From: Bacilli bacterium
GTDB lineage: Bacteria > Bacillota_I > Bacilli_A > RFN20 > CAG-826
Direction of reading: 5' to 3'
Assembly (NCBI GenBank): GCA_044372565.1
Contig: JBILRP010000003.1
Coordinates: 5,471-69,470 of the forward strand
DNA length: 64,000 nucleotides
Shown: one piece after another, positions 347 to 37,600 of the stretch
How the letters are laid out: each line of letters begins with the position of its first letter
How positions within the stretch are numbered: the stretch's first letter is position 1
Notes under the pieces: generated by a model
Told to the model about the DNA's origin: nothing
The model's input: the letters and a program-made list of their open reading frames with translations, nothing else
The model's database searches: none
Translations under genes and position numbers: made by a program

Positions 347-413
347 AATCACAAATAACCTACCTTAATGAAGCAAAAGTTGAGATAATGGAGTTAAGAA
401 AAGGGGTGGAAAT

Positions 414-962: not shown

Positions 963-965
963 ATC

Positions 966-3950: not shown

Positions 3951-3995
3951 TAAATTTGATTATAACAAAACTAACCTAAAGGAGTCATCAATAAG

Positions 3996-4977
3996 TGTTA
4001 AAATGGTCAAGATGAAACAAATCACCATCACTGCTCAAAACGCAAATCAACGAGCAGATAAATTTATAAGAAAATGGTTAAAGGAAGCTCCACTTAGTTT
4101 TATCTATCGGGTTTTTCGCAAGAAAGACGTCAAGGTCAATGGTAAACGGATCACCATTCAATATATTCTCCAACCTGGAGATATCATGGAAGTGTATGTC
4201 ACGGACAAACAGTTACTTGATTTTACCGTCCATCGTCGCTATCAAAAAAAGCCACTGAACCTTCCGATTTTATATGAAGACGACCATTGCATGCTGATTC
4301 ATAAGCCCAAAGGCTTATTGGTTCAAGGTGAAGATGACACAAGGCAACATACCTTAACCGAAATGGTCATTGAACATTTGTATTTCCACGATTTGTTTAA
4401 TCCAGATGCTCCAGGGTTTACCCCTGCCCCAGGACACCGATTGGATCGGAATACCAGTGGATTGGTTCTTTATGGCAAAACCATCGAAGGGTTACAATCC
4501 CTTCATCGCTTATTCAAGGAACGAGAAGATTTAAACAAACAGTATTTAGCCCTTGTGGTTGGAAAACTGACAGGTAAAGGAAAAATTGATTTACCTTTAA
4601 TTAAGGACGAAACCAATAAAATGGTCTACGTTGCTCATCCTCCAATTAAAGGTTTATCAGCAATCACCGAATATGAAGTCATCGCTCATTATGGAGATTT
4701 TACATTGGTTAAAATTCAGTTGATTACTGGAAGAACTCATCAAATTCGCGTGCATATGCAAGCCATCAATCATCCAGTGGCGGGCGATCGTAAATATGGA
4801 GATTTTCATGCCAATCGATGGCTAAAAGATCAATTTCGATATGAACACCAATTCCTTCATGCGAGTGAACTTTCCTTTAGTCAACTTGAAGGGGTTCTTT
4901 CAGGGTTATCAGGGAAAACATTTACTCTAAAATTAGATGCACAAGAAGAAGAATTATTGATAAAATTAAAAGCGTGA
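3996..4977 (+). CDS. RluA-family 23S rRNA pseudouridine synthase (RluC/RluD-like) with N-terminal S4 domain
   Basis: HRLDRNTSGLVLYGKT catalytic-Asp motif; S4-like N-terminus. Start is uncertain (GTG 3996, ATG 4004 or ATG 4013) because the six-frame ORF extends upstream into the tRNA-Ser gene; GGAG at 3981-3984. Confidence 0.85.
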
Positions 4978-6698
4978 AGTCAAACCCTAACAGTCGTTAT
5001 CAAACTTGGTTAAACCATCCATCGATGACAAAAGAGGATCGTTTGATTCTTGAACGTTATTCTCCTTCCGAAATTGATGATGCATTTTTCAAGGACATTG
5101 AATTTGGTACTGCAGGTATGCGTGGCATTATGGGTCCAGGATCAAATCGAATCAACCCCTATACCATTACGAAAGCAACCATTGCGTATGGGTTGATGTT
5201 AAAAGAGCAATATCCTCATCAACTTGAACGTGGGGTCATGATTGCCCACGACAATCGCCATGGTGCTATTGCTTTTACTGAATTGGTGTCTAACATTCTT
5301 AATTCAATGGGCATTGATACTTTTACCTTTAAAGAATTGATTCCTACACCCCTTCTTTCTTACGCTGTTCGACATCTTCGTGCATTAGGTGGCATCATGC
5401 TGACCGCTTCTCACAACCCTAAACAATACAACGGTGTAAAAGTTTATGATGATCAAGGTTGTCAATTGGTCCCACAAAAGATTCAACCGATGTTAAATCA
5501 TTTATCAACATTACCCGATGCTTTATCCTCATCTGTTCCAGAATCTACCATCAAAGGAAAGCATCGAATTGTTCATGATGACGTTGAACAAACGTATCTT
5601 GAAAAAGTAAAAAGTCTTCAACGACTTCCATCGTTAACGAAGAAAGATTTTCGAATTGTTTTTTCTCCACAGCATGGGGCCAGTTATCGTATCCTCCCTC
5701 AACTCTTTCATGAATTAGGCTACCAACTTTCTGTTGTGAAAAACCAAGCATTGCCTGATCCAAATTTTTCCGGAACTTTATCACCCAATCCAGAAGAAAA
5801 ACTTGCTTATCAAGAAGCAATTAAACTAGCTGAAAGACAAAAAGCTCATTTGATTATGGTGGCAGATCCAGATGCTGATCGGGTTGGACTAGCCTATCTT
5901 AATAGTCGAGGAAGTTATGTGTTACTCAATGGCAATGAATCTGCTGCTTTATTGATTCATTACTTATTATCGCAAAGAAAACTCAATCATGATTTACCTA
6001 TTCAGGGTGTTGTTTATGACACGATTGTGAGTTCTCCGTTAGCGAGAAAAATCGCTCAATCATTTGGTTTAAGAACCGAAACATTTTTAACTGGATTCAA
6101 ATTTATTGGCGATCGAATCGCTTTTTATGAAACGCATGCCGGACCTCAGTTTATCTTTGGATATGAAGAATCCTATGGCTGCCTGATTGGAGATTTTGTC
6201 CGCGATAAAGATGCCATTCAAGCCTTGTTATTGTATGCAGAAATGTCATTATTTTATTTTCATCAAGGAAAAGATTTAGGCCAAGCGTTGAGTGCGATTT
6301 TCAATGAGTTTGGCTACCATCTCGATCGGCAGTTTTCTCTCACACTTTCAGGGAAAGAAGGCGCTGATTTTCTTAATCAGTTGATGAAACAGCTTCGATT
6401 AACCCCTTTTAAACCCCTTTCTGGTCACAAAGTTTTGCTCGTTGAAGATTTTCAAACCCAAACGAAAAAAGATCTTGAGGGTCATCAATCCAATATTGCT
6501 TTGCCAATGTCCAATGTGATTAAATTTAGTTTTGAAGACGGGTCGACCATTGTGGTTAGACCAAGTGGAACTGAACCAAAATGTAAATTCTACTTCTCAA
6601 TCACGGATCAATCCATGCAAGCATGTGAAGCAAAACTTTCAGCCTATATTGACGCTTTTTCTAAGATTTATTTATCTGAAGATAAACGCTTGAAGTAG
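4974..6698 (+). CDS. pgcA: phosphoglucomutase/phosphomannomutase (alpha-D-phosphohexomutase family)
   Basis: 574 aa; active-site GIMLTASHNP with phosphoserine; N-terminus is PgcA-like; GTG start overlaps the preceding TGA. Confidence 0.85.
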   Translation: MKSNPNSRYQTWLNHPSMTKEDRLILERYSPSEIDDAFFKDIEFGTAGMRGIMGPGSNRINPYTITKATIAYGLMLKEQYPHQLERGVMIAHDNRHGAIAFTELVSNILNSMGIDTFTFKELIPTPLLSYAVRHLRALGGIMLTASHNPKQYNGVKVYDDQGCQLVPQKIQPMLNHLSTLPDALSSSVPESTIKGKHRIVHDDVEQTYLEKVKSLQRLPSLTKKDFRIVFSPQHGASYRILPQLFHELGYQLSVVKNQALPDPNFSGTLSPNPEEKLAYQEAIKLAERQKAHLIMVADPDADRVGLAYLNSRGSYVLLNGNESAALLIHYLLSQRKLNHDLPIQGVVYDTIVSSPLARKIAQSFGLRTETFLTGFKFIGDRIAFYETHAGPQFIFGYEESYGCLIGDFVRDKDAIQALLLYAEMSLFYFHQGKDLGQALSAIFNEFGYHLDRQFSLTLSGKEGADFLNQLMKQLRLTPFKPLSGHKVLLVEDFQTQTKKDLEGHQSNIALPMSNVIKFSFEDGSTIVVRPSGTEPKCKFYFSITDQSMQACEAKLSAYIDAFSKIYLSEDKRLK

Positions 6699-9013: not shown

Positions 9014-9589
9014 TTATTTCAACGTTTTAATCGCGCGCGCATATTTTGAGACGTGATTGGCTTTGTAATCAATATTGGCTTTTTCACATAATAATTTTAA
9101 TGTTTCTGCCGCGTGCTTGAGTGAAGATTCTTCACTTTCTACCTCGAAATCAATTAATCCATGGTATGAATTTTTATCCAGACAAACATGGCGATTTTCA
9201 AACGTGGTTTCATATCGTTCAGTCGTCAACTGAGTAATAATCTGAAGCTTTGTTGTATCAAAACCAAACATTTCTAAAAAGTTTTTAATTAAACCAAGTG
9301 GGAAAACTTTTTTTGTTTTATAGACTAAATAAGCTTGTTCGGTCAGGGTTTGATTTTTTTCCAAGGTTCCCTCTGCCATGGGTGATTTTAAAGTAAGCGT
9401 AAAGGTTTGGTTTAATTCACGGATTCTTAGAGCAAAACCATATTTTCTCAATGAACCCATCGGATCATCAATATAGTAGTTGGTTTGAACAACCTTTAAT
9501 TTTTCTTCAATTTTTAAAAGCGATTTTAGTAAGTTAAATTCTTTTTCATTAACAAGAATTTTAGCCTCAATTTCAATGTTTGTTGACAT
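9014..9589 (-). CDS. CYTH-domain protein (YjbK-like triphosphate tunnel metalloenzyme)
   Basis: N-terminal EIEAKILV motif typical of CYTH; same position relative to nadK as B. subtilis yjbK. Confidence 0.7.
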   Translation of the reverse strand: MSTNIEIEAKILVNEKEFNLLKSLLKIEEKLKVVQTNYYIDDPMGSLRKYGFALRIRELNQTFTLTLKSPMAEGTLEKNQTLTEQAYLVYKTKKVFPLGLIKNFLEMFGFDTTKLQIITQLTTERYETTFENRHVCLDKNSYHGLIDFEVESEESSLKHAAETLKLLCEKANIDYKANHVSKYARAIKTLK

Positions 9590-15046: not shown

Positions 15047-15835
15047 TTAACTTAGTTCAAATAAGTTACGGTGCATCCAAGCATCAGATAGTGTCACAGC
15101 TTTATCGTAAAAATTAGCACCTGGTACAGAAATAAGTAATTCTGAAATACCTTCTTCTGGACTGTTGCTCGATAAATCATACATGATCACGGTTGGGGTT
15201 GGAATGGAGTTTGATTCTGCACTTTCTAATGTATCAATTTGAACATCGGTTAGTTGATTGTTTACTTTGTAAGGTGAATTTCGAGCAACATCTGCAGTTC
15301 TTTCTAAGAAATCAGTATTTCTTTGTAAAAATCTTTCAAATGGTGTGGTGGTTGTGTCTTCTGGGAAATCGTAGCTTTCATCGGTGAAGATGGTATAAAA
15401 CTTAAAGGTTCCAAATTGTTCTTTAGTGACTTCGCTGATGCTGTCACTTTCCTGAGTGCCATAATAACGAGAGGTGTTTTCGACCAATTCTTTAAGAGCA
15501 GGTTGGGCATCTTTACAAAACTGACAATTAACTTGGACAAACACAACCATGAACTTTTCTCCAAATTCATCTGAGTTATCCATCATTGCGTCGATTAATT
15601 TTTGTGCATCAGAATCTTCTTCACCTTCAAGTTTCTTTTCAAAGTTACGGTAATAACTTTCAGGGCTATTGATGCTTTCAGCAATGCCATTCACCCATTC
15701 AGTGATGGTAGGGATAGAAAAGATGATTGCGAAAATGGAACCAACAATCAACAAAGGTTGTACCCATGCTGTTTCTTTAATCCAATTCCACAGACCACCA
15801 AATATTTTTCCGAAAAACAATCCAATTGGTTTCAT
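15047..15835 (-). CDS. membrane-anchored extracytoplasmic thioredoxin-fold protein (CxxC)
   Basis: N-terminal TM helix; VFVQVNCQFCKDAQPAL thioredoxin-like CxxC and a later PT-turn motif (TPTVIMYD); GGAGG RBS 9 nt before the ATG at 15835. Confidence 0.6.
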   Translation of the reverse strand: MKPIGLFFGKIFGGLWNWIKETAWVQPLLIVGSIFAIIFSIPTITEWVNGIAESINSPESYYRNFEKKLEGEEDSDAQKLIDAMMDNSDEFGEKFMVVFVQVNCQFCKDAQPALKELVENTSRYYGTQESDSISEVTKEQFGTFKFYTIFTDESYDFPEDTTTTPFERFLQRNTDFLERTADVARNSPYKVNNQLTDVQIDTLESAESNSIPTPTVIMYDLSSNSPEEGISELLISVPGANFYDKAVTLSDAWMHRNLFELS

Positions 15836-15972
15836 TTGAAAACCTCCAGCTAATCTCGTATAGCACGTTAAGTTTACCAAAGACTAATGACTACTTCAAT
15901 AAAAATTACTCCCTTAATCTAAAAGGTTTGAAATAAGGTATAATTCTATCGATTTAAAGGTGGATAATCCCA

Positions 15973-16953: not shown

Positions 16954-17979
16954 TTATCGGTATTCGGAAAGAACGTTAGATAGCAAGGTGGGTCGATCGG
17001 TCATAATTCCATCAACTCCTTTTTCAATAAGACTTCGCATGGTTTCTTCGTCATTGATTGTCCAATAGTGGACAGCAATGTTGTGCATATGGGCTGTATT
17101 GATCAATAGATTGGTTGTCAAAGAAAGACCAAGTTGCTCTGTTGGAAGTTGAAAAACGGCAATAGGTTGACGATAAAAAACGCTCATAAGTGTTGTTTGT
17201 AAAATAAAAAAACTAAGAACCCCATTAAATTCTGGTGAGAACATGAGTTGCGGGTGTGAAGTTTTTTGTAATGATTCCATGGATTGGAAAACTTCTTCGT
17301 GAAAAGTAGCAAGAACGATACGTTGATAAGTTTGATGAGTTGTGTTCAATTCATCCATAATCTCAATCACTTTCTCTAATGCTAACAAACCGACCTCTCC
17401 AGTTTGTTTGATCTCGACGTTGATTAAATTATTGGGAAAAAGAGTAATTAACTCCTCTAAAGTAGTGACTAAAAACTTGGTTGGATGTCGTGGGCTAATC
17501 CCTTGTGGATAAGTCACATCTTCCGGAGTCACCTCTTCATTGGCATAGTTTTTATACTTAAAGAATTCGCCGCTTGTGTTGTAACCATTCGCTCCAGAGA
17601 TATTGTTTTGATAACCAAAGTCCACTTCATTGGCAACAAGGTCGGAATAATTCGTATTGATAACATCAGCATTGATGAGGTTAGTTTTTTGATCTAAACT
17701 ACGGTCGTGAGAAAGAATAACGACCCCATCTTGAGTAAGGTTAACATCAGTTTCTAACATGACATTTTCATCAATGCTAAAAGCATGATAATAAGCTTCT
17801 AAAGTGTTATCAGGAAACTCTAAATTACCACCACCGTGAGCAATGATCAGAGGTAAATCACCATTCTCAACCCGAAGTGGATTTGAACCCTGAAAATTTT
17901 GTGGTCTAGGGAAAAGTGCGATTAAACCATAAACAATAAGAATACTTAGGAAGATTTGTCTTTTTTTGATTTTTTTCAT
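16954..17979 (-). CDS. glycerophosphodiester phosphodiesterase family protein, secreted or membrane-anchored
   Basis: N-terminal signal/TM; IIAHGGG..EFPDNTLEAY and ILSHD GDPD motifs. Confidence 0.8.
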   Translation of the reverse strand: MKKIKKRQIFLSILIVYGLIALFPRPQNFQGSNPLRVENGDLPLIIAHGGGNLEFPDNTLEAYYHAFSIDENVMLETDVNLTQDGVVILSHDRSLDQKTNLINADVINTNYSDLVANEVDFGYQNNISGANGYNTSGEFFKYKNYANEEVTPEDVTYPQGISPRHPTKFLVTTLEELITLFPNNLINVEIKQTGEVGLLALEKVIEIMDELNTTHQTYQRIVLATFHEEVFQSMESLQKTSHPQLMFSPEFNGVLSFFILQTTLMSVFYRQPIAVFQLPTEQLGLSLTTNLLINTAHMHNIAVHYWTINDEETMRSLIEKGVDGIMTDRPTLLSNVLSEYR

Positions 17980-17989
17980 ATTTTTTTCT

Positions 17990-18080
17990 TGGCGGAGAAA
18001 GAGGGATTTGAACCCCCGCGAGACTTGCGCCTCCTATCAGTTTTCGAAACTGACCCCTTCAGCCACTTGGGTATTTCTCC
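17990..18080 (-). tRNA. tRNA-Ser (anticodon CGA)
   Basis: Type II tRNA: acceptor GGAGAAA/TTTCTCC, anticodon stem TCAGT/ACTGA with loop TTCGAAA, long variable arm, encoded CCA; ends 10 nt upstream of the GDPD start. Confidence 0.85.
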
Positions 18081-18129: not shown

Positions 18130-19929
18130 ATGCATATATTGATATTGTTAGTGATGATTCTAAAAGGTATAATTTTAGAGATGCAATGGTTTGAATTTCC
18201 TTGGTTAACGACTCTTGAAAATCCATTATTGATTTTTATAATCGGTATTGTATTAATGGTTATTTTTTTAATCATTTTAATTACGTATTTAAGCTTTCTT
18301 GCCCAGCAAAGAAAGCACCAAGTTGCAATCAAACAACGCATTCATCATTACTTGGTTTATCGAATCAATCTTAAACTCGATGTAGTCTATGAATTTAACC
18401 CCAAATATCCTGGACATGATAAGTTAATTCCCGTCAGCCAATTTTTAAAAAAGTTCCAACCCTCTGATGCAGAAAAAATATATCAATGGTGGGAAAAATT
18501 ACTCCAGTCAAAACTTGATACGCCTTGGATCCTGACCACGAAGTCCATGAAGAAAAAGCAAGATAGCCACAGGCAATTAATTTTTGAAATTATCAAAATA
18601 GATGAAGCTAAACAAACGATTCATTTTCATCAATATGGTTTGAAATATTTAAAACCCAATCCTAAAAAATTAGCGACAAAACAACTTGTGATTAGTTCAC
18701 AGCAAGCATTTGATATTGTTAAAAAATTACCAGTTAAACAAGGAGCTTTTATTTCCATTTTTATGATGTTTCCGCGTGCTGGATTAGATGAGCAATTTAA
18801 GTATTTTTATTTGTCTCAATGTAAAGAAAAACTTATTCCTTATTTGTCATCTCAATTATTGTTAATTGATACTGCAAACGATATTTTAGTCTTGGCAACA
18901 AAGTCTCTTGAATCTCATGAGTATATGCAAATCGCTCAAAGTTTGTATCGCGTTATTTCTCAATATGTAGAGGTAAATGCATTAGAATCATTGATTAAAT
19001 TTAATTTAGCCATTATTGAACACAAACATTTCCCTAATGATCTAGGAACTTTACGTCGTAAAAGTAAGGAACTTAATCAACTTATGATGAAGAAAAAACT
19101 TAACGTGTTGGCTTATGAAAAACATCAACCTGTCGCTCAAACGTTAGAAAAAAATGAGACGCTATTTGCTGATGATTTTTATCGCCAACTCAAATTTAAC
19201 TTTCTTTACCGCCCTCTTGTTAATCAACCCGATATTGACGTCGTGGGGCAACAAATTATCATTCAACCCCAAACGCCCTCTACTTTAAATACATTTGAAT
19301 TACTGAAAGAAGTGCCCATCATGATGGAATATACGAAAGAATTCTATCGTCGATATTTCTCACTCATTCAACAATCATTGAACCTTCAACAAGGTATTTT
19401 ACTTACACCCTTTTCTTTAACCATGAAATTACAAGAGTTACTACCTGAAATAAAGAATCTTACCTCAGCTTCCCAGTTGGTGGTTTTACTTGATGAAAGT
19501 GAAATCAATGAAATTGCTACCACAGAAATATCCCTTAAAACTTGGGCTGACCCATTAAAAAGAATGGGCGTTCATTTTGCAATTACCATTGATAATATGA
19601 CCCCCAATATGGAAGATCCTATCTATCAGTTTTTTGACTACTTGGTCATCGACTATAAACGAATGATTAATATTGAAAACAATCAAAAGACATCCATTCA
19701 ACTTAAATCAATCTTTCAGAACTACAGTCGATTTGAAAAGCCTTTTGTTGTGGTTGATATGCTTTCAGAGGCAAGTCTAGAATTGTTACCATTAAAGCAT
19801 GTTAAAATTCTAAGTGCTGATTGGATCATGGGTTATCAAACCAAAGCTGATCAGTTAACAAAAAGGCAAGTTAGTAAAATCAAGAATCTTATTAACAAAC
19901 AGGAGCAGTATCATGGAAAAACAAATTAA
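18130..19929 (+). CDS. membrane protein with a C-terminal degenerate EAL-like domain
   Basis: Two N-terminal TM helices; C-terminal about 250 aa aligns by eye to EAL landmarks: LYRPLVN (YQPIV), QII in place of EAL, ITIDNM (DDFGTG), DYLVIDYKRMI (LKIDRSF), and a terminal ...KILSADWIMGY (QGYLF) segment. Confidence 0.55.
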   Translation: MHILILLVMILKGIILEMQWFEFPWLTTLENPLLIFIIGIVLMVIFLIILITYLSFLAQQRKHQVAIKQRIHHYLVYRINLKLDVVYEFNPKYPGHDKLIPVSQFLKKFQPSDAEKIYQWWEKLLQSKLDTPWILTTKSMKKKQDSHRQLIFEIIKIDEAKQTIHFHQYGLKYLKPNPKKLATKQLVISSQQAFDIVKKLPVKQGAFISIFMMFPRAGLDEQFKYFYLSQCKEKLIPYLSSQLLLIDTANDILVLATKSLESHEYMQIAQSLYRVISQYVEVNALESLIKFNLAIIEHKHFPNDLGTLRRKSKELNQLMMKKKLNVLAYEKHQPVAQTLEKNETLFADDFYRQLKFNFLYRPLVNQPDIDVVGQQIIIQPQTPSTLNTFELLKEVPIMMEYTKEFYRRYFSLIQQSLNLQQGILLTPFSLTMKLQELLPEIKNLTSASQLVVLLDESEINEIATTEISLKTWADPLKRMGVHFAITIDNMTPNMEDPIYQFFDYLVIDYKRMINIENNQKTSIQLKSIFQNYSRFEKPFVVVDMLSEASLELLPLKHVKILSADWIMGYQTKADQLTKRQVSKIKNLINKQEQYHGKTN

Positions 19930-21349
19930 AAACGAGGCCATCACATCACGTTCACAAGACTTTGCGCAGTGGTACACCGATGTATGTAAAAAAGCTGAAT
20001 TAATGGATTATTCATCCACCAAAGGATTTATTATCTATCGACCATATGGGTATGCAATTTGGGAACAAATTCAAAAGTATCTTGATTTAGAATTTAAAGA
20101 AACAGGCCATGAGAATGTTTACATGCCTATGGTGATTCCTCAAAGTCTTTTTAATAAAGAAAAAGAACACGTGGAAGGATTCGCCCCGGAAACCTTAGTT
20201 GCTACGCTTGGAGGAAAAGAAAAACTCGATGATCCCCTCATCATTCGACCCACCTCAGAAGTTTTATTCTGTGAACATTATGCAAAAATCGTCAATTCTT
20301 ATCGTGATTTACCTAAAAAATATAACCAATGGTGCTCGGTGGTGAGATGGGAAAAAACCACAAGACCATTTTTACGTGGTGCTGAATTTTTATGGCAAGA
20401 AGGTCATACAGTCCATGAAACAGAACAAGAAGCACGGTTTGAAACCTTACAAATGCTAAAAATTTATCAAGACATGGGTGAACAATTATTAGCGATCCCC
20501 TTCTTAACGGGTAAGAAAACTGATAAAGAAAAGTTTGCAGGGGCGATGGAAACCTATGCAATTGAAGCTTTGATGCATGACGGTAAATCGCTACAATCTG
20601 GAACAAGTCATTATTTCGGGACTGGATTTGCCAAAGCTTTTGGCATTCAATTTCAAGATCGGCTAAACACATTACAACCCGTTCATCAAACCTCTTGGGG
20701 AGTTTCAACTCGCTTAATCGGTAGTTTGATTATGGTTCATGGCGATGATAATGGTCTTGTTTTACCTCCTCAAGTAGCTCCAATTCAGGTGATCATTGTC
20801 CCTATCATGCAACAAAAACCAGGGGTATTGACGGCTGCAAAAGCACTTCTAGACACCTTAAAAGCTTCAGGAATAAGAGCAACCATGGACGCAACGGACA
20901 ATTCACCTGGTTGGAAATTTGCAGAAGCGGAAATGAAGGGCATTCCATTACGTGTTGAAATAGGACCTAGAGACTTAGAACAACAGCAAATTGTGATTGT
21001 GAAGCGTAATGATAAAGTTAAAAAAATCATTAAATTTGCTGATTTAGTATCTGAAGCAAAAGGATTAATGGTAAGCATCCAACAAGAAATGTTATTGAAG
21101 GCCAAAGAACATTTATCGATGAATATTCGAGAAGTATCATCCCTTGATCAGTTGATAGAAACGCTGAATCAATTTGGTGGATATGCCAAAGCATCCGTTG
21201 ATGACAGTGAAGACGTTGAACGCATCGTCAAGGAAAAAGCTCAGGCAACCGCGCGGGTTATTCCCTTTGATCAAGTTGGATTACAAGCAAGATGTGCCAT
21301 CACCGGCAAACCAGCCAAACGAATCGTTTATTTTGCACGAGCCTATTAA
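19913..21349 (+). CDS. proS: prolyl-tRNA synthetase, archaeal/eukaryote-like type lacking the bacterial editing insertion
   Basis: 478 aa; N-terminus ITSRSQDFAQWYTDVCKKAELMDYSSTKGFIIYRPYGYAIWE; class II motifs; C-terminal zinc-binding-type domain; AGGAG RBS; overlaps the upstream gene by 17 nt. Confidence 0.95.
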   Translation: MEKQIKNEAITSRSQDFAQWYTDVCKKAELMDYSSTKGFIIYRPYGYAIWEQIQKYLDLEFKETGHENVYMPMVIPQSLFNKEKEHVEGFAPETLVATLGGKEKLDDPLIIRPTSEVLFCEHYAKIVNSYRDLPKKYNQWCSVVRWEKTTRPFLRGAEFLWQEGHTVHETEQEARFETLQMLKIYQDMGEQLLAIPFLTGKKTDKEKFAGAMETYAIEALMHDGKSLQSGTSHYFGTGFAKAFGIQFQDRLNTLQPVHQTSWGVSTRLIGSLIMVHGDDNGLVLPPQVAPIQVIIVPIMQQKPGVLTAAKALLDTLKASGIRATMDATDNSPGWKFAEAEMKGIPLRVEIGPRDLEQQQIVIVKRNDKVKKIIKFADLVSEAKGLMVSIQQEMLLKAKEHLSMNIREVSSLDQLIETLNQFGGYAKASVDDSEDVERIVKEKAQATARVIPFDQVGLQARCAITGKPAKRIVYFARAY

Positions 21350-21396: not shown

Positions 21397-21489
21397 GGAG
21401 TAGTACCCAAGAGGCTGAAGGGGACGGTTTGCTAAACCGTTAGATCGGAGTAATCCGGTGCGAGGGTTCAAATCCCTCCTACTCCGCCA
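21397..21489 (+). tRNA. tRNA-Ser (anticodon GCT)
   Basis: Acceptor GGAGTAG/CTACTCC, anticodon stem ACGGT/ACCGT with loop TTGCTAA, long variable arm, GGTTCAAATCC T-arm, encoded CCA. Confidence 0.85.
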
Positions 21490-21490
21490 T

Positions 21491-21522
21491 AACCCATATT
21501 CATTGATGGGTTTTTTTATTTT
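21491..21522 (+). terminator. rho-independent terminator after tRNA-Ser(GCT)
   Basis: AACCCAT-attcattg-ATGGGTT hairpin followed by TTTTTTTATTTT. Confidence 0.6.
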
Positions 21523-21565
21523 GAGAATAGGCGAAAAAGTTATAAAATTACAGATAACAACGATT

Positions 21566-22693
21566 ATGGTGATTATAGAAATTGTTAAGACTCGAAACGA
21601 ACTTAAAACATTTATTGATTTTCCATCCAATTTATATGAAGGGAATCCTTTTTTTACCCCTTATATCTATGAGGATGAATTAAGTAATCTTGATCCAAAA
21701 AAGAATCCAGCGAGTTCTTATTGTGATTTTAAGTTATTTCTAGCTAAAAAAGATGGCAAGGTTGTTGGTCGAGTTGCTGCCATCATCAATCGGTTTTCAA
21801 ATGAGAAGTATCATGAAAAACGAGTTCGTTTTAACCGAATTGATTTTATTGATAACCAAGAGGTCTTTGACGCCTTGATTGGTGCAGTTAGTCAGTATGG
21901 TAAAGAGCATGGCATGACCCAAATGGCAGGGCCATTAGGATATTCAGATCAAGACAAAGAAGGCTTACTTACCTTTGGTTTTGAAGAGAAAAATATGTTT
22001 GTTACTTTTTATACTGCTCCCTATTATGTTGACCATTTTCAACGGTATGGTTTTCAAATCGATGCTACTTGGAAGGAATATCAAATTAAAGTCCCTAAAG
22101 CGATACCCCCTATTTTAGATAAAATTTCCCAACGGGTGATGGAAAGAAATCATCTACACGTGGTTCGCATTAAGTCCAAAAAGTATCGATATTTAGCTCC
22201 ATATATCAAACAAATCTTTCAACTAATGAATAAGACGTATGATCATCTTTATGGATATGTTCCTGTCAAAGAAGATTTAATGGATATGTTGGTGAAGCAG
22301 TATATCCCGTTAGTTAATCTAGATTATATTCAACTGATCTGTGATGCGAACGATACCTTGGTTGCATTTGGATTGATGATTCCTTCACCCGTCGATGCTT
22401 TAAAACGTTCAAAGGGACATTTGTTTCCCTTTGGATTTATTAATTTTTTCAAGCAACTAAAGCATAGTAAAGTTTTGGATATGCTTTTAATTGCAGTTGA
22501 ACCTTCCTTAAAAAATTCCGGTGTTTTAGCCCTTGTCTTTACCGAAGCCATTCGTAATGCAATAAAAAACGGCATTGAGCATGCTGAAACAGGACCAGAA
22601 TTAGAAAACAATCAACACGTTCAATCGTTATGGAAAAACTTTGATTCTCGTCACCATAAAACAAGAAGTGCTTTTGTTAAAGATATTCAATAA
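21566..22693 (+). CDS. hypothetical protein (about 375 aa), possibly acyltransferase-fold; first gene of an operon with a PlsC-family acyltransferase
   Basis: Long ORF begins after the tRNA terminator (ATG 21566; the upstream in-frame portion overlaps the tRNA and is rejected); no firm motif recognised. Confidence 0.5.
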   Translation: MVIIEIVKTRNELKTFIDFPSNLYEGNPFFTPYIYEDELSNLDPKKNPASSYCDFKLFLAKKDGKVVGRVAAIINRFSNEKYHEKRVRFNRIDFIDNQEVFDALIGAVSQYGKEHGMTQMAGPLGYSDQDKEGLLTFGFEEKNMFVTFYTAPYYVDHFQRYGFQIDATWKEYQIKVPKAIPPILDKISQRVMERNHLHVVRIKSKKYRYLAPYIKQIFQLMNKTYDHLYGYVPVKEDLMDMLVKQYIPLVNLDYIQLICDANDTLVAFGLMIPSPVDALKRSKGHLFPFGFINFFKQLKHSKVLDMLLIAVEPSLKNSGVLALVFTEAIRNAIKNGIEHAETGPELENNQHVQSLWKNFDSRHHKTRSAFVKDIQ

Positions 22694-23920
22694 ATGGCAA
22701 CCAAGAAATATACGTTTTGGCAGCATGGAGTTTATGTCAAGATCATTCGTTTTTTTGTTGGACCTTTTTTTAAACTCTATTACCGTTTTAGGGCTCGTTC
22801 AATCAAAATTAAAAAGACCGGTCCTTATTTAATCCTTGCCAATCACACGGCAGAATTCGACATTATTTTCTTAGGGATGTTGTTTGATGCCCCTTTGTAC
22901 TTTGTGGCAAGTGATCAACTGTTAAACGCTGGAAAAGGTAGCTGGGTTTTAAGAACACTTTTTAATCCAATTCCAAAGAGTAAATCGGTGGCGGATTTGG
23001 CACTGGTGAAAAGAATGAAGTCAGTTTTACAAGAAGGTGGTAACGTTGCAATATTTCCAGAAGGTAATTCATCCATTCATGGTGGGCCTTCTAAGATTCC
23101 TGAAGGGATGGGTCGTTTAATAAAATTTTTAAATGTTCCCGTTAAGTTTATCTCTATTCAAGGATTATATTTATCGTCCCCTCGCTGGTCGTATCATCGA
23201 AAATTTGGGCCTTCAACCATGAAAGAGATAAAAACCATCACCCCTGATCAATTTCATTCCATGGCACCGGAATCATTAGAAACCTTAGTGAAAGAGACAC
23301 TCAATATCTCCGCCTATGATCACAACCACTTTTCCTATAAAGGTAAGCGGATGGCCGAAGGATTACATAAATTAATTTTTACCTGCCCTCAATGTCGTGG
23401 GTTGTTCACCACAGACAGTATGCATCATGAGTTATTTTGTCACCAATGTGACTTTAAAGGCACTTACGATCAACATGGCTATTTAAACATTCACGGTCAC
23501 AAAGATAATTTAATCAACCATGATGCGATGAATCTTCAGCGCTTCCACGAATACATGCTTGTTCATGGAAACAAGGTTTCTATTCACCGCCAATGTGAGG
23601 TTGCATTTTGGGAAGGTGGGAATCAACGACGAACTGCTTTTGAAGATACCAATTTTGAAATTTCAGAAAAAGGAGTAAAATTGTTAATTAAGGACAAGGA
23701 AATCCATTATTCCTTTGATGACATTTATTCTCAAGCGATTCAAGTTCGAACAAAACTTCTCATTTATCCTAACCAAGGTCAAATGATGTTGCTAAGGTTT
23801 GACAAAAAGGACTCCCCATACGCTTTGCTCAACGTGATCAAATGGTATAAAACTTATTTAATGGAGGGAAATAAACATGAATTTACTAAGCCCCTCGCCA
23901 CAACCTTTTTGGGCCTTTGA
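22694..23920 (+). CDS. PlsC-family (lysophospholipid) acyltransferase with a C-terminal Cys-rich zinc-ribbon domain
   Basis: HX4D motif in ILANHTAEFD; FPEGNSS (FPEGTR-like) motif; C-terminal CPQC...CHQC pair. Confidence 0.75.
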   Translation: MATKKYTFWQHGVYVKIIRFFVGPFFKLYYRFRARSIKIKKTGPYLILANHTAEFDIIFLGMLFDAPLYFVASDQLLNAGKGSWVLRTLFNPIPKSKSVADLALVKRMKSVLQEGGNVAIFPEGNSSIHGGPSKIPEGMGRLIKFLNVPVKFISIQGLYLSSPRWSYHRKFGPSTMKEIKTITPDQFHSMAPESLETLVKETLNISAYDHNHFSYKGKRMAEGLHKLIFTCPQCRGLFTTDSMHHELFCHQCDFKGTYDQHGYLNIHGHKDNLINHDAMNLQRFHEYMLVHGNKVSIHRQCEVAFWEGGNQRRTAFEDTNFEISEKGVKLLIKDKEIHYSFDDIYSQAIQVRTKLLIYPNQGQMMLLRFDKKDSPYALLNVIKWYKTYLMEGNKHEFTKPLATTFLGL

Positions 23921-25334
23921 TTTTTACTGGAGTCAGATCATCCAATTTTCGATTATTATGGCCATTTTGTTATTGGCCAATGTATTAAGAAGAAAAGTTC
24001 TTTGGTTAAAAGCTTCTTTATTGCCAGTGGCAGTCATTGGTGGTTTTTTAGGCTTATTGATCAAGTATCTCTTTAATGGTAGCCCAATCTCAATTGCTAA
24101 TCTAATGATAGAAGAGACGAGCTTATTTAATGTGGACACATTAAGTTCATTTACCTACCACGCGATTGCCATAGGTTTTGGTGCCTTAACCCTTAAAGGT
24201 ATCGATCAGATGAATCAAGGCCCAATGAGGAAAAAACCGCTCGCCGTGAAAAGTGGGATGGTCATTGTCAATTCTTATCTAATCCAGGGTATTTTTGGTC
24301 TAATTGTCACAAGTATTCTTACTTTCTTCTTTGTCAATATTCCTAATTATGCAGGGTTTTTATTACCGATGGGTTACGGTCAAGGACCTGGTCAAGCTCT
24401 GAATGTCGGTGATATCTTTCAACGTCTAGATTTTATCTATGGGCGTGATTTTGGTCTTTCTATTGCTTCAATTGGTTTTCTTGCAGCGTCATTAGGCGGC
24501 GTCATTTATCTACGAAAATTAAAAAACAAGGGCTTATTAAAGACAGTAGAAGAAACCTCGATGGAATCAAAACAAGAATCAACAATCCTTGAAGGCAATG
24601 GCCAGATCCCTCTTGTCGATGCCGTGGATAAGTTAACCATTCAAGTTGCCATTTTATTCTTTATTTATGGATTATCTTGGTTATTTATTTATGTTCTTGA
24701 ACAATTGATGCGACAAAGCGGTGTAGATTTTTTAATTAGGAATTTAATCCCACTTTTATATGGTTTTAACTTCATTATTGTTGTTTTTGCAGCATTATTA
24801 TATAAAGTGATCACCCGTAGACTCATTCAATCCAAGATCATGAAAAGAATTTACACGAATGACTTCCTTCTCAATCGAATTGCTGGATTAGCTTTTGATA
24901 TCATGATGATTGCCTCGATTATGGCTATTGACATTACCTTGGTTGGTGATTTAGGGTTCTTGGTGACGTTACTCGTTTTAGTGATTGGTGGGGGTTTGAT
25001 CACTTACTTCTATCTAGGTTATCTCACCAAAATCGTCTACCCTAACTATCCCCATGAAGCATTCTTGGTGTTTTATGGCACGATGACCGGTACCGCCTCC
25101 ACTGGGATTGCCTTATTAAGAGAAAAAGACCCTTATTTTCAAACTCCGGCTGCTAATGACATTGTCTATGGTTCATCGATGGCAATTCCTTTAGGGTTTC
25201 CCCTGCTCTTATTTGTTGGGGTGGTCAGTCAAGGCTGGGTATCTTTGTTGATTGTTTTGGTTATTTTTTCATTAATTTTTACGGTTTATCATCTAATTTT
25301 AAGCAAATCAAAGAAGAAACAAAATCTTCAGTAA
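23877..25334 (+). CDS. sodium/glutamate symporter family (GltS-like) membrane transporter
   Basis: 485 aa polytopic protein; N-terminal LANVLRRKVLWLKASLLPVAVIGGFLGLL and C-terminal YGTMTGTASTGIALLR resemble GltS landmarks; GGAGGG RBS; overlaps the previous gene by 44 nt. Confidence 0.65.
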   Translation: MNLLSPSPQPFWAFDFYWSQIIQFSIIMAILLLANVLRRKVLWLKASLLPVAVIGGFLGLLIKYLFNGSPISIANLMIEETSLFNVDTLSSFTYHAIAIGFGALTLKGIDQMNQGPMRKKPLAVKSGMVIVNSYLIQGIFGLIVTSILTFFFVNIPNYAGFLLPMGYGQGPGQALNVGDIFQRLDFIYGRDFGLSIASIGFLAASLGGVIYLRKLKNKGLLKTVEETSMESKQESTILEGNGQIPLVDAVDKLTIQVAILFFIYGLSWLFIYVLEQLMRQSGVDFLIRNLIPLLYGFNFIIVVFAALLYKVITRRLIQSKIMKRIYTNDFLLNRIAGLAFDIMMIASIMAIDITLVGDLGFLVTLLVLVIGGGLITYFYLGYLTKIVYPNYPHEAFLVFYGTMTGTASTGIALLREKDPYFQTPAANDIVYGSSMAIPLGFPLLLFVGVVSQGWVSLLIVLVIFSLIFTVYHLILSKSKKKQNLQ

Positions 25335-31639: not shown

Positions 31640-34600
31640 ATGTTAACAACGTTAGGTTTTGGAATCAATCCAACACAAATTGCCCAATATTTAGATTACG
31701 CATTGTATGGCATTTTCGGCATGGTCGCTTTAGGGTTTGTTTTTGGTTTCATTCGTGGGGTTTGGAGAGAAGGATTTCGCTTAATATTTGTTGGTGGATT
31801 GGTGGTCTTTTCTGTCTTATTCACCCGTCAGTTGGTCGATCTCTTCATGGATTTTGATGTTTCCTCGCTAGCTGCAAGCGCAGGATTTGCTTCCATTTCC
31901 TTAAACATAAATGCATCCCCAATCATTGTCTCGGTGACGACCCCATACGAAACAATTTATAATTTACTTGAACAATCCTTACTCGCTTTTGGCTTCTTTA
32001 TTACCCCCGCGATTTCTGACTTGGTCATTGGATTAACCCTAGTCATCTTAAGATATGTGCTCTTTATCGTCTTAGCAATCATCATCTTTTTATTGGGTGA
32101 ATCCGTCGCTGCGATTTTATACTTTCTCCCTTTTCGGTTTTTTATTCCCCGTCATTTTCGGAAAAAAGTTAAGTTGCGATTACTTGGTGGCGCTGCTGGG
32201 GCCTTGAAAATGGTGCTTGTCTTAACGATGTTTTTATCACCCTTTACATCCTTAATCAATTCTGTAACAACATCGTTTAGAGACTTCGATGAGCAATATG
32301 GTGACCAAATTGATGCCGAGCTTTATGACGAAATCATGTCGTTTGTTGACACATATAATGATTCAACGTTTGCCCAAACACTTTTTTCTTGGTCATTAAC
32401 TGATGATGGGTTGAGTATTGATTCTGCGTTGATGGATTTTGTTTCCGGTGAGGATTTAGATGCCTATCGATTGACGCTAGCAAATGAATTGGGATCGGTG
32501 GTTGATATTGCTGCGACCTTGTTAGGAAGTGGTGCTATAGACAGTACCTTTACCACCATTGACACATCGTTATTACTTTCAGAAGATTTAGTGACCAATC
32601 TAATCACCTCATTAACTGGGTCGGTTTTAATCATGAAGATTTTACCCATTGCCGTAACAATAGGATTAAATCTTGATGAAGTCTCCAGTTACTTAGATCC
32701 TTCATTAATTGATCTTGATGATTTAGTTTGGGAAGATGAACTTGGCTATCTAGGTGATATTTTTAATGGAGTGATTCGCTCTGGCATATTAACGCCGATT
32801 CTAAATGGTAATACCGATACTGCGTTTTTAATTGATACGATTTTCTCACCAACATCACAACCAGAAATCAATCAAATTTTAGAAACGATTGACGAGTCGC
32901 CTTTTCTATCTCAAGTAATTCCTGCTGTATTGTTCAAGCTTGTAGAAGATGAACTTGCTGCCGGTGGTCCAGTCGGTGGCGTTGGGCTATCTACATTCTT
33001 ACCAACGGAATGGGAAGAATACGAAACCATTCAGTTTGGATCAGAATTAAGTTTAATTTATGACTTGGTGTATGAATTAACATCGGAAGTGGATGGACTA
33101 TTTGACCTCCTTCTTCCAGCTCAAGATTCTCCACAGCCTCTGGGTCGTAAACAAGTGGATGAACCAGCAACCCCATCCATTATTGATTTATTAAGTGAGC
33201 ATTTAGATTTGTTTGTTGAAGTTTTAATCGGTGAAGTCAATACTGTTGGTGAACCAATCAATAACAATCCAACCACAGGTAAATCCATCAATCGCCAATC
33301 GTTGTTAGATTCTGATTTGATCATGAATGCGCTTCCTGCAATTGTGGAAAATTTATTATTACCAACTTTAACCAGTGTTGCCGGAGAAAGCTTTGATGAT
33401 ACGAGTTTAAATCAATTAATTGAAGATTTTAACAGCGGAAATTTAGGAGATGTTCGACTTGATTATAAAGGTGAATTCGGTGGGATTTTTAGTATTCTCG
33501 ACGCTGTCATTAGCAATGAAACGTTGATTGGTTTGCTTGAACCTGAACCAGGTGAGACGCTAGACATTTTAGGCTTAATCGAAGATGGTGAATTTCGCAA
33601 AGGATTAAAAACTGATTTGATTCCTGCGCTTGATCGATCCCAAATCATTTTTGCTGTCGTTCCAGGCATTTTAGAATCAACACTCACGGGTGCAGGATTA
33701 GATGATTTCCTCGGATTACTTTCCCTTACCAGTGCCGATTTGAATTTTGAATTTACAAGCTTATCTAGAGAGTTGATTATTGTCATCGATATGTTAGGTT
33801 ATGCCTTTAATGTGATTGACGCAAGTAGTGATTTATTGAATCAATTCCCGACCATCGCGTATGACCTTATTGGCTTATTGGACAACATTTACTTGTCTGA
33901 TATCATCAACAAAAATCCAATCACGAATAACAAAACCACGAATTATAATCAAATGATCAAAGGGATTTTCACCCTTGTTGAAGGTATCGGCATTGATGAA
34001 GACGACATCGATGTTGGCTTTAATCAGATTGTTCCAGTTGGGCAAGAAAATGGATGGACAACAACCTTTGTTGACACCAACAACAATGACAAACTTGATG
34101 CGCTTGACACGGTATCCTATGCCGGGGAAAATTATCACCTAGTCAACTTTTTAAAGACCGCTTTAGAATCTGGATTATTGGATATTTCTGGGGATATCTT
34201 TGCCGCCCTTGATGACTTAACTACGGGCAGTGAAGATATTGATGATCCTAACGTGGCAACCCTATATAAAATATTTGCCTATGCCGATCGCTCTGAGATT
34301 ATTGCCGCTTCCTTTGGGGGTATTCTTGATAGTTTGTTTGGGGCAACAGGTGGATTGCTGGATGCAGATTTAGGAACCTCATTTAGAAATGTGACGTCTT
34401 GGACAGAAGAAGGCTCTAATTTGATGTACTTAGTCAAACAGTTGACTAATTTTGCTGATGGTTTAGAGAACATTGATTTCCTCAATTCAGATGTATCGAT
34501 GATTGAAGAACTTTTACAAGGATTAGCTGCATCACAAATCTTTATCAAACCTAACGGAGACTATGTTTTTCCAGATTTCTTGTTAGACCAACTTACCGGT

Positions 34601-37600
34601 ATTGCCGATCTTGCAACCTATTTTGAAGATCCTTCTCCTTATCAATCGACTTGGGATGACAATCCTGCAGATAATTTTAATATTGTTACTGAAGATTTTT
34701 ACGCCATCAGTAATCAAGTGTCAACCCGAGCCAATTGGTATGGTGTGAAAACGATGATGACCGATGGAGATGGTGATCCGATTCTTAATGTGAATGGAGA
34801 TTTCCAATATGAATTTGTTGGTGGTGAATTAGAAAATATTGTTGGATTTATCTCAGAATTACAATCCGTTTCGATTGCTGATCTGACTTCTGGTATTGGA
34901 TTAAGCGGTGAAACAATTTCTGATGTCTTGCTCGCACTTAATAATGCATCCTCATTACGGGTGCTTGTGTATAACGTCTATGATTCAATCTTTGGTGGTT
35001 CGAATTTCGATATAGGTTCATTGTCTTTATCAGATACAAATACCTTTGTATTCTTAGAATTAAATCAAGCTGGTCGAGCCCAACAAATTCAAGCAACCGC
35101 AGATTTGTTAGATACGATTAGCGACATGGGACTTGATGGCGGTGGTTCATTTGACATTGCTGGTTTTGATGAATCTACCATTCTTGTCGTGGGTGACTTA
35201 TTGACCATTCTTCATGATGCAGCTTTATTTAACTCGTTCAAATTAGGTCGTTCTCGTCTTAATGGTGACTTAACCGTCTTTGAACAAGCCTATCAATTTT
35301 TATTGACGACGGCAACGTTGGATACCTTTATTTATGACGGACTGAATGAGGCGCAAAGAGAGGTCGCACTATATCAGGATATGACATCTCTCGATAATAG
35401 TTTTGGAACCAATACACCCGACGATTGGGATGGACTCGATGGCGAAATTCAACGCTTTGTGGATATCATGGTGTCGTTTGTTAACACTGGTATCGACTTC
35501 ACGAACTTTGGTGGCGATGCGATTGGTGATTTATTGAATACAGAAGTTGGTTTGGGTAAAGTGGAAGATCTATTGCTTTCCATGAATGAATCGATAATTA
35601 TTTCACCGGCCATTGGCAACTTGTTTGGCAATGTATTTGGCTCAGATGCCTTTGATATCGGCGGCCTAACCATGAGTGATGCCAACACCAATTACTTCAA
35701 CCAACAACCACTCAAATCAGTGCGAGCAACAGAAATTAGTTTAATTCTCGATATTTATTGGGATATTAACAATATCGGTATCACCGGTGGTGCTGCTTTT
35801 TCCGCCGATCTTATTGACCCAGTGTTGTTTGATGCCTTGCTCAACAAAATGCATGATTCCAAAGTCTTTAATTCATTTAAAACTGGAAATAGTTATGTAT
35901 TGGATGATTTAACCATCTTTGAACAAACCGTGAGAATGATCTTAAATTCATCTACCCTTGATACGTTTATCTATGATGAACCGATTAGTGCGAATCGACT
36001 GCTTTTACTTCAAGATGACATTGCTGCCTTAAATAATAATTTTGGGATTGGATTAGTCGATGATGATTGGACTGGTGTCAATGGTGAAATCAATAACATT
36101 ATTGGGATTCTTGAGTCCTTTAAAGAAACCGATATCGATTTCACGAACTTTGGTGGGGATGCGATTGGCGACTTATTGAATACAGAAGTTGGTTTGAATA
36201 AAGTTGAAAATTTATTATTATCGATGAATGATTCAACGTTAGTTGCTCCTTCCATTGGTAACCTTTTTGGTAACATCTTTGATTCTGACTCATTCAACAT
36301 CAATGGCTTAACGATGAGTGATGCTAATACGCCTTTCTTTAACGAAGAAGCCAATCGTGAAACACGAGGAGTGGAAATTAGTTTAATCTTAGATATTTAC
36401 ACGGACATCAATTCAATTGGCTTGTCTGGTGGCGCTGCTTTTTCATCCGATTTAATCAATCCGATTCTCTTTGATGATCTTCTGACGAAAATGCATTCAT
36501 CGAATGTCTTTAATTCCTTTAAACAAGGAAACAGTTATGTCAGTGAAGATTTAACCATCTTTGAACAAACCGTGAGAATGATTTTAAATACATCCACCAT
36601 TGACACCTTTGTATACGACGGCGAAATTAATTCTGCTCGATTAGGCTTTCTACAAGAGGACATGAGTGTAATGGTCAACAACTTTGGAAATCTCAGTATC
36701 ACCGATGATTGGGCTGGTGAAACAGGCGAAATTTCTAAGATTGTTGCAATCTTATCAGCGTTTAAAAATCTCGATCTTGATTTTAGTTCATTCTCTGGAC
36801 CGGGGTCTTCAGAAAGTTTAGCAAGTTTAATTGATACCCCTGCTGGTTTAACAAAAATTGAAAACTTGCTTTTGGCGATGAACGATTCGCTCATCGTTTA
36901 TCCCGCCATTCCTAATTTATTTTCTAACATGTTAGCCGGTGGGGATTTTTCTTCGATTGGTGTGAATTTCGCGATGGCAAACTTTCGTTATCGTGGGAAT
37001 AGAAATAATCCGATTAGTCCAGTAGTTGATGACATTTATCTTCCTTATGAACCGACAGAAATATCGGCAATTTTATCGATTTTCTCAGACGTGAAAATAG
37101 TGGGTAATCGAAGTTACGGATCGATTAAGGATTTATCTGATGAAGGCATTGATGACATGGCCAACTTGGTCACGGATTTATATGAGTCTCAAGTGTTTCA
37201 CCAAACTGGACCAGCGACGGCATTGGGCACAGATTTAACCATCTTTGAACAAATGATGGCGAAGATGTTTAAAGACACCGGAATGGCTGCGCTTGCTTAT
37301 GATGCCAATCGTTTGGCGGATGCGCCGTTTGGTAATGCCAATGCCAAAGCGAACCACTTGGTGTTAAACTTCTCCACATTATTCCCTGTCAACAACACCA
37401 CGCATTTAACCGATGGGTGGTTGAATGATGGGGCTCAAGTTGGGGAAATAACAGCCTTCTTTAGAATTTTTAAAGAATTTAAAGTTGCTTTGCCAAATCT
37501 AGAAAGCGCATCCTCGATTGATCCAGGCGCATTATCACCCACGTCAATTGGGCGAATCATGGCGGCCTTAAATTATTCATCCTTAACCTCCGATGCCGTT

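Follow-up and report, generated by a model that had tools for sequence, protein, structure and literature searches.

Most known GGDEF-EAL proteins without enzymatic activity come from Proteobacteria. LapD of P. fluorescens and V. cholerae joins a membrane anchor and a signalling helix to tandem degenerate GGDEF (dGGDEF) and degenerate EAL (dEAL) domains, and the glutamate of its EAL motif is replaced. It has two transmembrane helices, a periplasmic LapG-binding domain and a HAMP domain, and the arginine after its EAL motif, which belongs to the ExLxR motif, is kept at the centre of its binding site for cyclic di-GMP (c-di-GMP) (PMC3032553). FimX of Pseudomonas and Xanthomonas, with the order REC-PAS-dGGDEF-dEAL, is a soluble c-di-GMP receptor in which ExLxR has been retained (PMC10333796, Table 1). 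CsrD and YdiV/STM1697 are catalytically dead, have a damaged ExLxR and act via macromolecular partners (PMC10333796). We analyzed a 64,000-nt stretch of DNA from a Bacilli bacterium (assembly GCA_044372565.1, contig JBILRP010000003.1, positions 5,471 to 69,470 of the forward strand), hereafter the window, whose own positions are used below. One of its genes, directly on the 5′ side of the prolyl-tRNA synthetase (ProRS) gene proS (19913..21349), had been taken in a preliminary description for a membrane protein with a dead EAL-like domain. We found that it encodes a highly divergent degenerate GGDEF-EAL protein of an uncharacterised but widespread family, and not a new kind of system. The reading that we favor, with moderate confidence, is a non-enzymatic, membrane-tethered sensor or scaffold with PAS-like, dGGDEF and dEAL domains, which would probably act independently of c-di-GMP and be expressed from a leaderless bicistronic unit with proS.

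The maximal open reading frame (ORF) of the gene, 18130..19929 on the plus strand, encodes 599 amino acids (aa). Residue numbers refer to this form unless the 582-aa form is named. Family counts and the family profile were based on an alignment (A2) of 75 full-length relatives, and the residue map was made by hhalign of the family profile together with a site table over these relatives. The protein was divided as follows.

18223..18303 (aa 32-58), plus strand: single N-terminal transmembrane helix, with hydropathy up to 3.7
18340..18675 (aa ~71-182), plus strand: PAS-like alpha/beta domain, from the strand and helix order of the AlphaFold2 (AF2) model and from Foldseek
18688..19116 (aa ~187-329), plus strand: degenerate GGDEF domain, from the family profile against PDB, hhalign, and PF00990 in 3 of 75 relatives
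19186..19860 (aa ~353-577), plus strand: degenerate EAL domain, from hhalign, Foldseek, and PF00563 in 38 of 75 relatives

The predicted architecture is a transmembrane helix with a stalk, followed by the PAS-like, dGGDEF and dEAL domains. The membrane protein of the preliminary description was confirmed in the form of one strong hydrophobic helix (aa ~32-58), while its dGGDEF and PAS-like domains had been missed. The AF2 model placed an unbroken helix at residues 15-53 of the 582-aa form, with a predicted local distance difference test (pLDDT) value of about 95. The segment before the transmembrane helix is about 14 aa long, and the basic stretch QQRKHQVAIKQRIHH stands directly after it. Because of this basic stretch, the positive-inside rule implies an N-out/C-in topology that would leave the bulk of the protein in the cytoplasm. 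Two residues of the PAS-like domain, F105 and W120, hardly vary among the family members. No Pfam PAS match was found for the protein or its aligned relatives.

Direct profile searches failed at such divergence, and it took an iterated family profile and structure prediction to recover the homology. Pfam gave no family for the window protein at E<=10, and NCBIfam gave only noise and no relevant match. When PDB sequences were searched with a profile built from the close clade (A1), no EAL chain was found, only a chance match to AmiA (E 0.22). By an exhaustive profile search, 224 cluster representatives were found, nearly all of 560-610 aa and aligning end to end. PF00563 (EAL) was matched by 38 of the 75 relatives in A2, with a best E of 5.5e-16, and PF00990 (GGDEF) by three, with a best E of 4.7e-7. 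The A2 family profile matched GGDEF-EAL chains in PDB, namely PA0575 (E 7.6e-8), FimX (4j40, E 4.8e-6) and DosP, with E values between 7.6e-8 and 1.4e-3. Searched against a large protein database, it returned mostly close homologs plus four canonical GGDEF-EAL proteins. An hhalign comparison of A2 with these four covered both domains in 426 columns, at 99.65% probability and E 4e-24. A profile of distant members only (A3) revealed at least 401 metagenomic relatives, and there was no cultured organism among them.

The predicted structures pointed in the same direction. A first AF2 model, built on 20 sequences, was confident only in the C-terminal domain, yet as a model it already matched PAS-GGDEF-EAL proteins. 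The second model, built on 75 sequences, had a mean pLDDT of 87.3 and a predicted TM-score (pTM) of 0.68. Its EAL region was mostly at pLDDT 85-96 and fell to 66-73 near aa 508-527. Tandem GGDEF-EAL structures were the top Foldseek matches of this model. The multi-domain and single-domain matches were as follows.

PA0575 GGDEF-EAL (5m3c): E 5e-17
PA0861/RbdA PAS-GGDEF-EAL (5xge): TM-score 0.47-0.49 over ~583 columns
LapD, MorA and DosP, multi-domain: E 1e-13 to 1e-16, with LapD 3pjw at E 2e-15
EAL domains of LapD, FimX, BifA, MorA, YkuI and TBD1265: E 1e-9 to 1e-10, TM-score (TMt) 0.66-0.73

The EAL domain of LapD (3pjt) reached TMt 0.73 and that of FimX 0.69-0.71. No sequence or fold link to another hydrolase was found in the Pfam, NCBIfam, PDB and Foldseek searches. 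By fold and by transitive and profile homology, the window protein belongs to the EAL and GGDEF superfamilies. The order of EAL landmarks seen in the preliminary description was therefore real, being borne out by both the family-profile alignment and the fold match, and so was its degenerate, catalytically dead EAL-like domain, given the PF00563 matches among the relatives and the EAL fold. A Pfam EAL search and a structure prediction had been suggested there as checks. The Pfam search gave no direct match, yet the fold was that of EAL (TM-score 0.69-0.73 to the EAL domains of LapD and FimX). Since the absence of a profile match and a non-EAL fold were both required to overturn the assignment, it stands.

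The sites that define active GGDEF and EAL domains were then read in the window protein and its relatives.

GG(D/E)EF: T248-A-N-D-I252 (nt 18871-18885); glycines lost in most of the 75 relatives
YQPI: Y-R361-P362-L; R in 55 of 75 and P in 69 of 75 relatives
ExLxR: Q375-I-I-I-Q379 (nt 19252-19266); E replaced mainly by F, L, Q or I in the 75 relatives
N of NlS: F428 (or P427); V, I or L in relatives
ExTE: E458..E461, with a register ambiguous with D455/E456; E456 in 60 of 75 and D/E458 in 72 of 75 relatives
DDFGTG: D488-N-M-T-P-N493, in which DD corresponds to D488-N489; variable in relatives
K of lKiD: V506; I, V or L in relatives
E of AEGVE: V542, followed by D543; S, T or I in relatives
Q-G: S562-A563; S-S in relatives

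All hallmark catalytic residues were replaced except one Asp and the acids of the ExxE region. The acidic residues retained in the dEAL domain are E456, E458, D503, D508 and D543. Not one of the 75 relatives combines the E with the R of ExLxR. The RxxD inhibitory site (I-site), checked five residues upstream of the GGDEF site, is absent in the window protein and in the 75 relatives. Because the replacements recur across the 75 relatives, catalysis and ExLxR were lost anciently and family-wide, before the family diversified, and the loss is not peculiar to this genome.

The strings quoted in the preliminary description are present in the protein (QII at 375, ITIDNM at 485 and ILSADWIMGY at 560), but not all of them hold the assigned places. 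The replaced EAL glutamate was correct, with Q375 lying in GQQIIIQ. The DDFGTG loop is indeed degenerate, but ITIDNM is three residues out of register with the true D488-N-M-T-P-N493. The supposedly retained QGYLF segment did not survive the comparison, the canonical Q-G position being S562-A563 (S-S in the family). The GY at 568-569 lies six residues past this position, is not conserved in the wider family and is coincidental.

For inactive EAL domains, ExLxR has been described as the determinant of c-di-GMP binding, and neither YdiV/STM1697 nor E. coli CsrD (ExMxR) binds this nucleotide (PMC10333796). Canonical c-di-GMP binding by the window protein is unlikely, because both this motif (PMC10333796) and the arginine that is central in LapD (PMC3032553) have been lost. 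The proposed likeness to dead EAL receptors and scaffolds was thus right as to the dead EAL domain and weak as to the c-di-GMP-binding type, considering QIIIQ and the 0 of 75 relatives with both E and R.

The membrane anchor, the signalling helix, the tandem dGGDEF-dEAL module and the replaced EAL glutamate are common to LapD and the window protein. The latter differs in having one transmembrane helix, only ~14 aa outside, a PAS-like domain in the place of HAMP, and QIIIQ where LapD has KVLxR. FimX shares the order PAS, dGGDEF, dEAL and was matched by both sequence and fold; unlike FimX, the window protein is membrane-bound, and it has neither a REC domain nor ExLxR. RbdA (PA0861), PA0575, MorA and DosP, which are active PAS-GGDEF-EAL enzymes, were the best overall fold matches to the cytoplasmic region. 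They keep functional EAL sites and some of them functional GGDEF sites, whereas the window protein has neither. The closest functional analogy is with CsrD and YdiV/STM1697, since the window protein, like them, has lost both catalysis and the ExLxR-type binding determinants, and CsrD is also a membrane-anchored dGGDEF-dEAL protein. There is no specific sequence kinship, however. The N-terminus of CsrD is GAPES4-HAMP, YdiV consists of EAL only, and their partners are proteobacterial (CsrB/C RNAs with RNase E, and FlhD4C2).

True orthologs were found among proteins named "EAL domain-containing protein" in metagenome-assembled genomes (MAGs) of Bacilli and Erysipelotrichaceae, such as MBE6133066.1 and HOH68115.1. 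They are full-length (~575-590 aa), have the same domain layout and also lie between YitT upstream and proS downstream. Although only 17-23% identical to the window protein, they rise above the Pfam EAL threshold, unlike the freshwater clade to which the window belongs. No experimental work on these orthologs was found in the literature searched, nor anything specific on this family in Erysipelotrichaceae or Acholeplasma.

The homologs also bear on where the gene starts. They are mostly of 581-582 aa, and their first residue is a Met equivalent to M18 (nt 18181). In the upstream alignment, the 51 nt before 18181 are conserved as a promoter and not as coding sequence. The 17 extra codons of the 599-aa form traverse the conserved -35 and -10 boxes, and the apparent conservation of KGIIL in homologs with a longer N-terminus comes from translating the TATAAT box. 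Because most homologs begin at 18181 and the DNA upstream is a conserved promoter, the true start is most likely the ATG at 18181, giving 582 aa. A start at 18130 (599 aa) was rejected on the same grounds. The gene and its junction with proS contain these features.

18181..19929, plus strand: likely coding sequence of the transmembrane, PAS-like, dGGDEF and dEAL protein, 582 aa plus stop
18145..18173, plus strand: putative sigma-70-type promoter (TTGTTA, 17-nt spacer, TATAAT), from a consensus scan and cross-locus conservation
19901..19905, plus strand: AGGAG Shine-Dalgarno sequence of proS, in the 3′-terminal part of the preceding gene, 7 nt before ATG 19913
19913..19929, plus strand: 17-nt overlap, shared by the end of the dGGDEF-dEAL gene and the beginning of proS
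19913..21349, plus strand: proS, prolyl-tRNA synthetase, with Pfam tRNA-synt_2b, HGTP_anticodon and ProRS-C_1

The pattern TTGT(T/G)A-N17-TATAAT-N7-ATG is common to the window and all 10 related loci aligned upstream (L001-L010). TATAAT-N7/8-ATG also occurs in the distant orthologs L012 (~5960-6003) and L018 (~3975-4003). Since the -10 box ends only 7 nt before ATG 18181, a leaderless or near-leaderless mRNA is implied, with a transcription start that we infer from the position of the box. The 17-nt overlap with proS and the AGGAG in the coding end, both already reported, were found at the places listed above. The same overlap is present in every close-clade locus that reaches the junction (L011 ends before it), while distant orthologs have a gap of 6-17 nt to proS instead. 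Given the overlap, no terminator could fit between the two genes, which presumably form a bicistronic unit. The C-terminal KQE.Y.GKTN is invariant among close homologs, consistent with a dual constraint. Internal promoter-like and terminator-like sites were no commoner than in shuffled sequences and were left uninterpreted. No T-box, riboswitch or other Rfam element was found upstream of proS, and Rfam found only four tRNAs in the window.

The gene is under strong purifying selection and is no pseudogene. The ratio of nonsynonymous to synonymous substitution rates (dN/dS, omega) against close orthologs was 0.05-0.12, similar to that of the neighboring housekeeping genes. By region, omega was lowest in the PAS-like and dGGDEF domains (~0.02), higher in the dEAL domain (0.065) and highest in the transmembrane segment (0.19). 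The full-length ORF was intact in all complete loci. It is nevertheless the fastest-evolving gene of the neighborhood, with protein identities of 62-69% compared with 75-86% for its neighbors.

The close clade consists of freshwater-lake MAGs labelled "Bacilli bacterium", some of them mislabelled Staphylococcus. Its gene order is fully conserved: YitT/DUF2179, GDPD (minus strand), tRNA-Ser (minus strand), the dGGDEF-dEAL gene and proS. The last is directly downstream in every close-clade locus that reaches the junction. Among six distant members (17-23% identity), proS is directly downstream in four, P0083 (an Erysipelotrichaceae MAG), P0058, P0064 and P0158, each time with its own Shine-Dalgarno sequence, and YitT lies upstream in three of these four. 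P0103 and P0133 are not adjacent to proS. The window and the distant loci share a wider housekeeping block, with RNase J, def, ylbF, rsmD and coaD on the upstream side and Ham1 and TraX on the downstream side. The family of orthologs is widespread among uncultured small-genome Bacilli and Erysipelotrichaceae.

In the window, a glycerophosphodiester phosphodiesterase (GDPD) gene and a tRNA-Ser(cga) (16954-18080, minus strand) separate YitT from the dGGDEF-dEAL gene. They are absent at that position in the distant loci L012, L014 and L018, so that they form an insertion into the conserved block that is specific to the freshwater clade. The tRNA lies divergently beside the gene.

17990..18080, minus strand: tRNA-Ser(cga), divergent, from ARAGORN and Rfam
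18118-18090, minus strand: promoter-like site of tRNA-Ser(cga), from the promoter scan, with AATTATAC...TTTCAT conserved in the upstream alignment

No other GGDEF, EAL or PilZ domain was found in the ~63 ORFs of the 64-kb window. The lone EAL protein without a GGDEF partner in view was borne out for the window only, and the protein has a degenerate GGDEF domain of its own. That such a protein should be unusual in a reduced, low-GC genome was weakened by the widespread orthologous family and by a known case. Acholeplasma laidlawii, a mollicute with a reduced genome, has 14 GGDEF/EAL proteins (PMC2408644), so these domains are unsurprising in a small low-GC genome as such; the species serves as an example and no kinship is implied.

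The gene is thus the ortholog, in this genome, of an old family specific to uncultured small-genome Bacilli and Erysipelotrichaceae. It encodes a predicted single-pass N-out/C-in membrane protein with PAS-like, GGDEF-fold and EAL-fold domains on the presumably cytoplasmic side, and both nucleotide sites are destroyed. In the mechanism that we propose, the dGGDEF-dEAL module might signal via protein-protein contacts or a non-canonical ligand, like YdiV/STM1697 or CsrD and unlike LapD or FimX. The conserved promoter would give a leaderless bicistronic mRNA with proS, on which the translation of proS would start behind its own AGGAG. YitT upstream and ProRS downstream are candidates for partners. 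Several points weigh against this reading. LapD binds c-di-GMP although K replaces its EAL glutamate (KVL motif; PMC3032553), so the loss of the motif in the window protein is suggestive, but not proof, of no c-di-GMP binding. The acids on the barrel face are conserved (E456 in 60 of 75, D/E458 in 72 of 75, D503 in 68 of 75 and D/N543 in 55 of 75 relatives) and could still provide a site for a metal or ligand. For the PAS-like label, the predicted fold is the sole basis. Taken as a whole, the promoter scan showed no enrichment (12 sites compared with 13.4 expected in shuffles), and only conservation across loci supports the promoter site. Both the co-transcription with proS and the leaderless start were deduced from sequence alone.

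An alternative is a receptor of the LapD/FimX type, in which the dead EAL domain would bind c-di-GMP made by cyclases encoded elsewhere and relay the signal at the membrane. The transmembrane and dGGDEF-dEAL layout is shared, LapD and FimX are among the closest structural matches, LapD binds in spite of its KVL motif (PMC3032553), the reduced-genome mollicute A. laidlawii has many GGDEF/EAL proteins (PMC2408644; again with no kinship implied), and the EAL pocket region is strongly constrained (omega 0.065). We still consider such a receptor unlikely. ExLxR reads QIIIQ, with its central Arg missing, and E and R occur together in none of the relatives. The site-lining N, K, E of EGVE and Q-G are all hydrophobic or small family-wide. 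Moreover, there is no HAMP and no periplasmic output domain, with only ~14 aa outside, and no GGDEF, PilZ or second EAL is encoded elsewhere within 64 kb. The conserved acids raise another idea, that the EAL barrel was remodelled for new catalysis or a new ligand (e.g. c-di-AMP or pGpG) through E456, D/E458, D503, D508 and D543, in a layout like that of GdpP. The domain order of GdpP is transmembrane segment, PAS, dGGDEF and phosphodiesterase, which the order in the window protein resembles, the acids at the C-terminal barrel face are conserved across the family, and strong selection keeps the family in genomes of about 1.5 Mb. This idea is speculative, however, and we regard it as quite doubtful, since the general base Lys and most of the EAL metal ligands are gone and the searches linked the protein to no other hydrolase by sequence or fold.

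The persistent neighborhood of proS might instead reflect a specific tie to ProRS or translation, with the protein, for example, anchoring ProRS, regulating it, or responding to proline or to the charging of tRNA. The adjacency persists at ~17-20% identity in four of the six distant members, the 17-nt overlap is found in every close-clade locus that reaches the junction, and no T-box lies upstream of proS. But small genomes that rearrange slowly can keep genes in order without any interaction between the products, the whole rsmD-coaD-...-YitT-X-proS block is conserved, two family members do not adjoin proS, and no known precedent was found. Such a tie is therefore highly improbable in our view. 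That the ORF is decaying or spurious, as the pseudogenised remnant of a GGDEF-EAL gene, is hardly credible. It has no direct Pfam or NCBIfam match and is the fastest-evolving protein of its neighborhood (62-69% compared with 75-86%). Nevertheless, all complete loci carry the ORF intact, full-length orthologs number in the hundreds, dN/dS lies at 0.05-0.12 (omega ~0.02 in the PAS-like and dGGDEF domains) and the AF2 model is confident. The orthologs, the confidence of the model and dN/dS effectively refute the pseudogene reading.

Some other features of the window and of the relatives' loci were also observed. The ORF at 21458-22693 (plus strand), downstream of proS, has an annotated GTG start that overlaps tRNA-Ser(gct) (21397-21489). 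Because of this overlap, its real start is probably further downstream, by about 15-37 codons, where tblastn alignments begin. It is one of several conserved ORFs without a Pfam family, together with those at 15047-15880 (minus strand), 23877-25334 (plus strand), 42608-43114 (minus strand) and 54346-55029 (plus strand). A 2405-aa ORF (31640-38857, plus strand) has no Pfam match at E<=1e-3 and is very large for a small genome. Upstream of YitT, a 277-aa ORF has a CxxC motif (CQFC), and a similar-sized unannotated ORF stands at the same position in L012, L014 and L018. A gene for a CYTH-domain protein lies at 9014-9589 (minus strand). At 51230-52860 (plus strand) there is a PP2C phosphatase and Ser-Thr kinase pair in the usual PrpC-PrkC-RsgA block; the kinase has only 301 aa, and the Pfam matches returned for it are confined to the kinase domain (aa 17-264). 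In a relative's locus, L015, a Guanylate_cyc-domain gene stands beside a PycTM gene (1-1048, minus strand), with transposase fragments nearby and the orthologous gene just downstream. The two look like a Pycsar-type anti-phage pair.

The names under which the family is recorded vary. At NCBI, relatives are called "EAL domain-containing protein" or "hypothetical protein". Some JGI records have "cell division protein FtsL" or "bisphosphoglycerate-dependent phosphoglycerate mutase" (P0004, P0008, P0013, P0014 and P0050), without domain evidence. Two MAG records with the gene are titled Staphylococcus epidermidis, and the rest of the clade "Bacilli bacterium" or "Bacillota bacterium". The proteins of the clade, now labelled "hypothetical protein" and wrongly "FtsL" in some JGI records, can be relabelled as degenerate GGDEF-EAL membrane proteins.

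What makes the family noteworthy is the loss of ExLxR throughout, the deep synteny with proS and the retention in small genomes. A constrained, proS-syntenic family of Bacilli without ExLxR is a reasonable test case for c-di-GMP-independent roles of GGDEF and EAL folds. It is conceivable, although rather unlikely, that this anciently dead family with its transmembrane, PAS-like, dGGDEF and dEAL parts has a c-di-GMP-independent housekeeping role in the proS operon, for example as a membrane-tethered regulator linked to translation or proline or by using a new ligand bound through the conserved acids. If this were true, Gram-positive lineages would have EAL-fold proteins of a new functional class.

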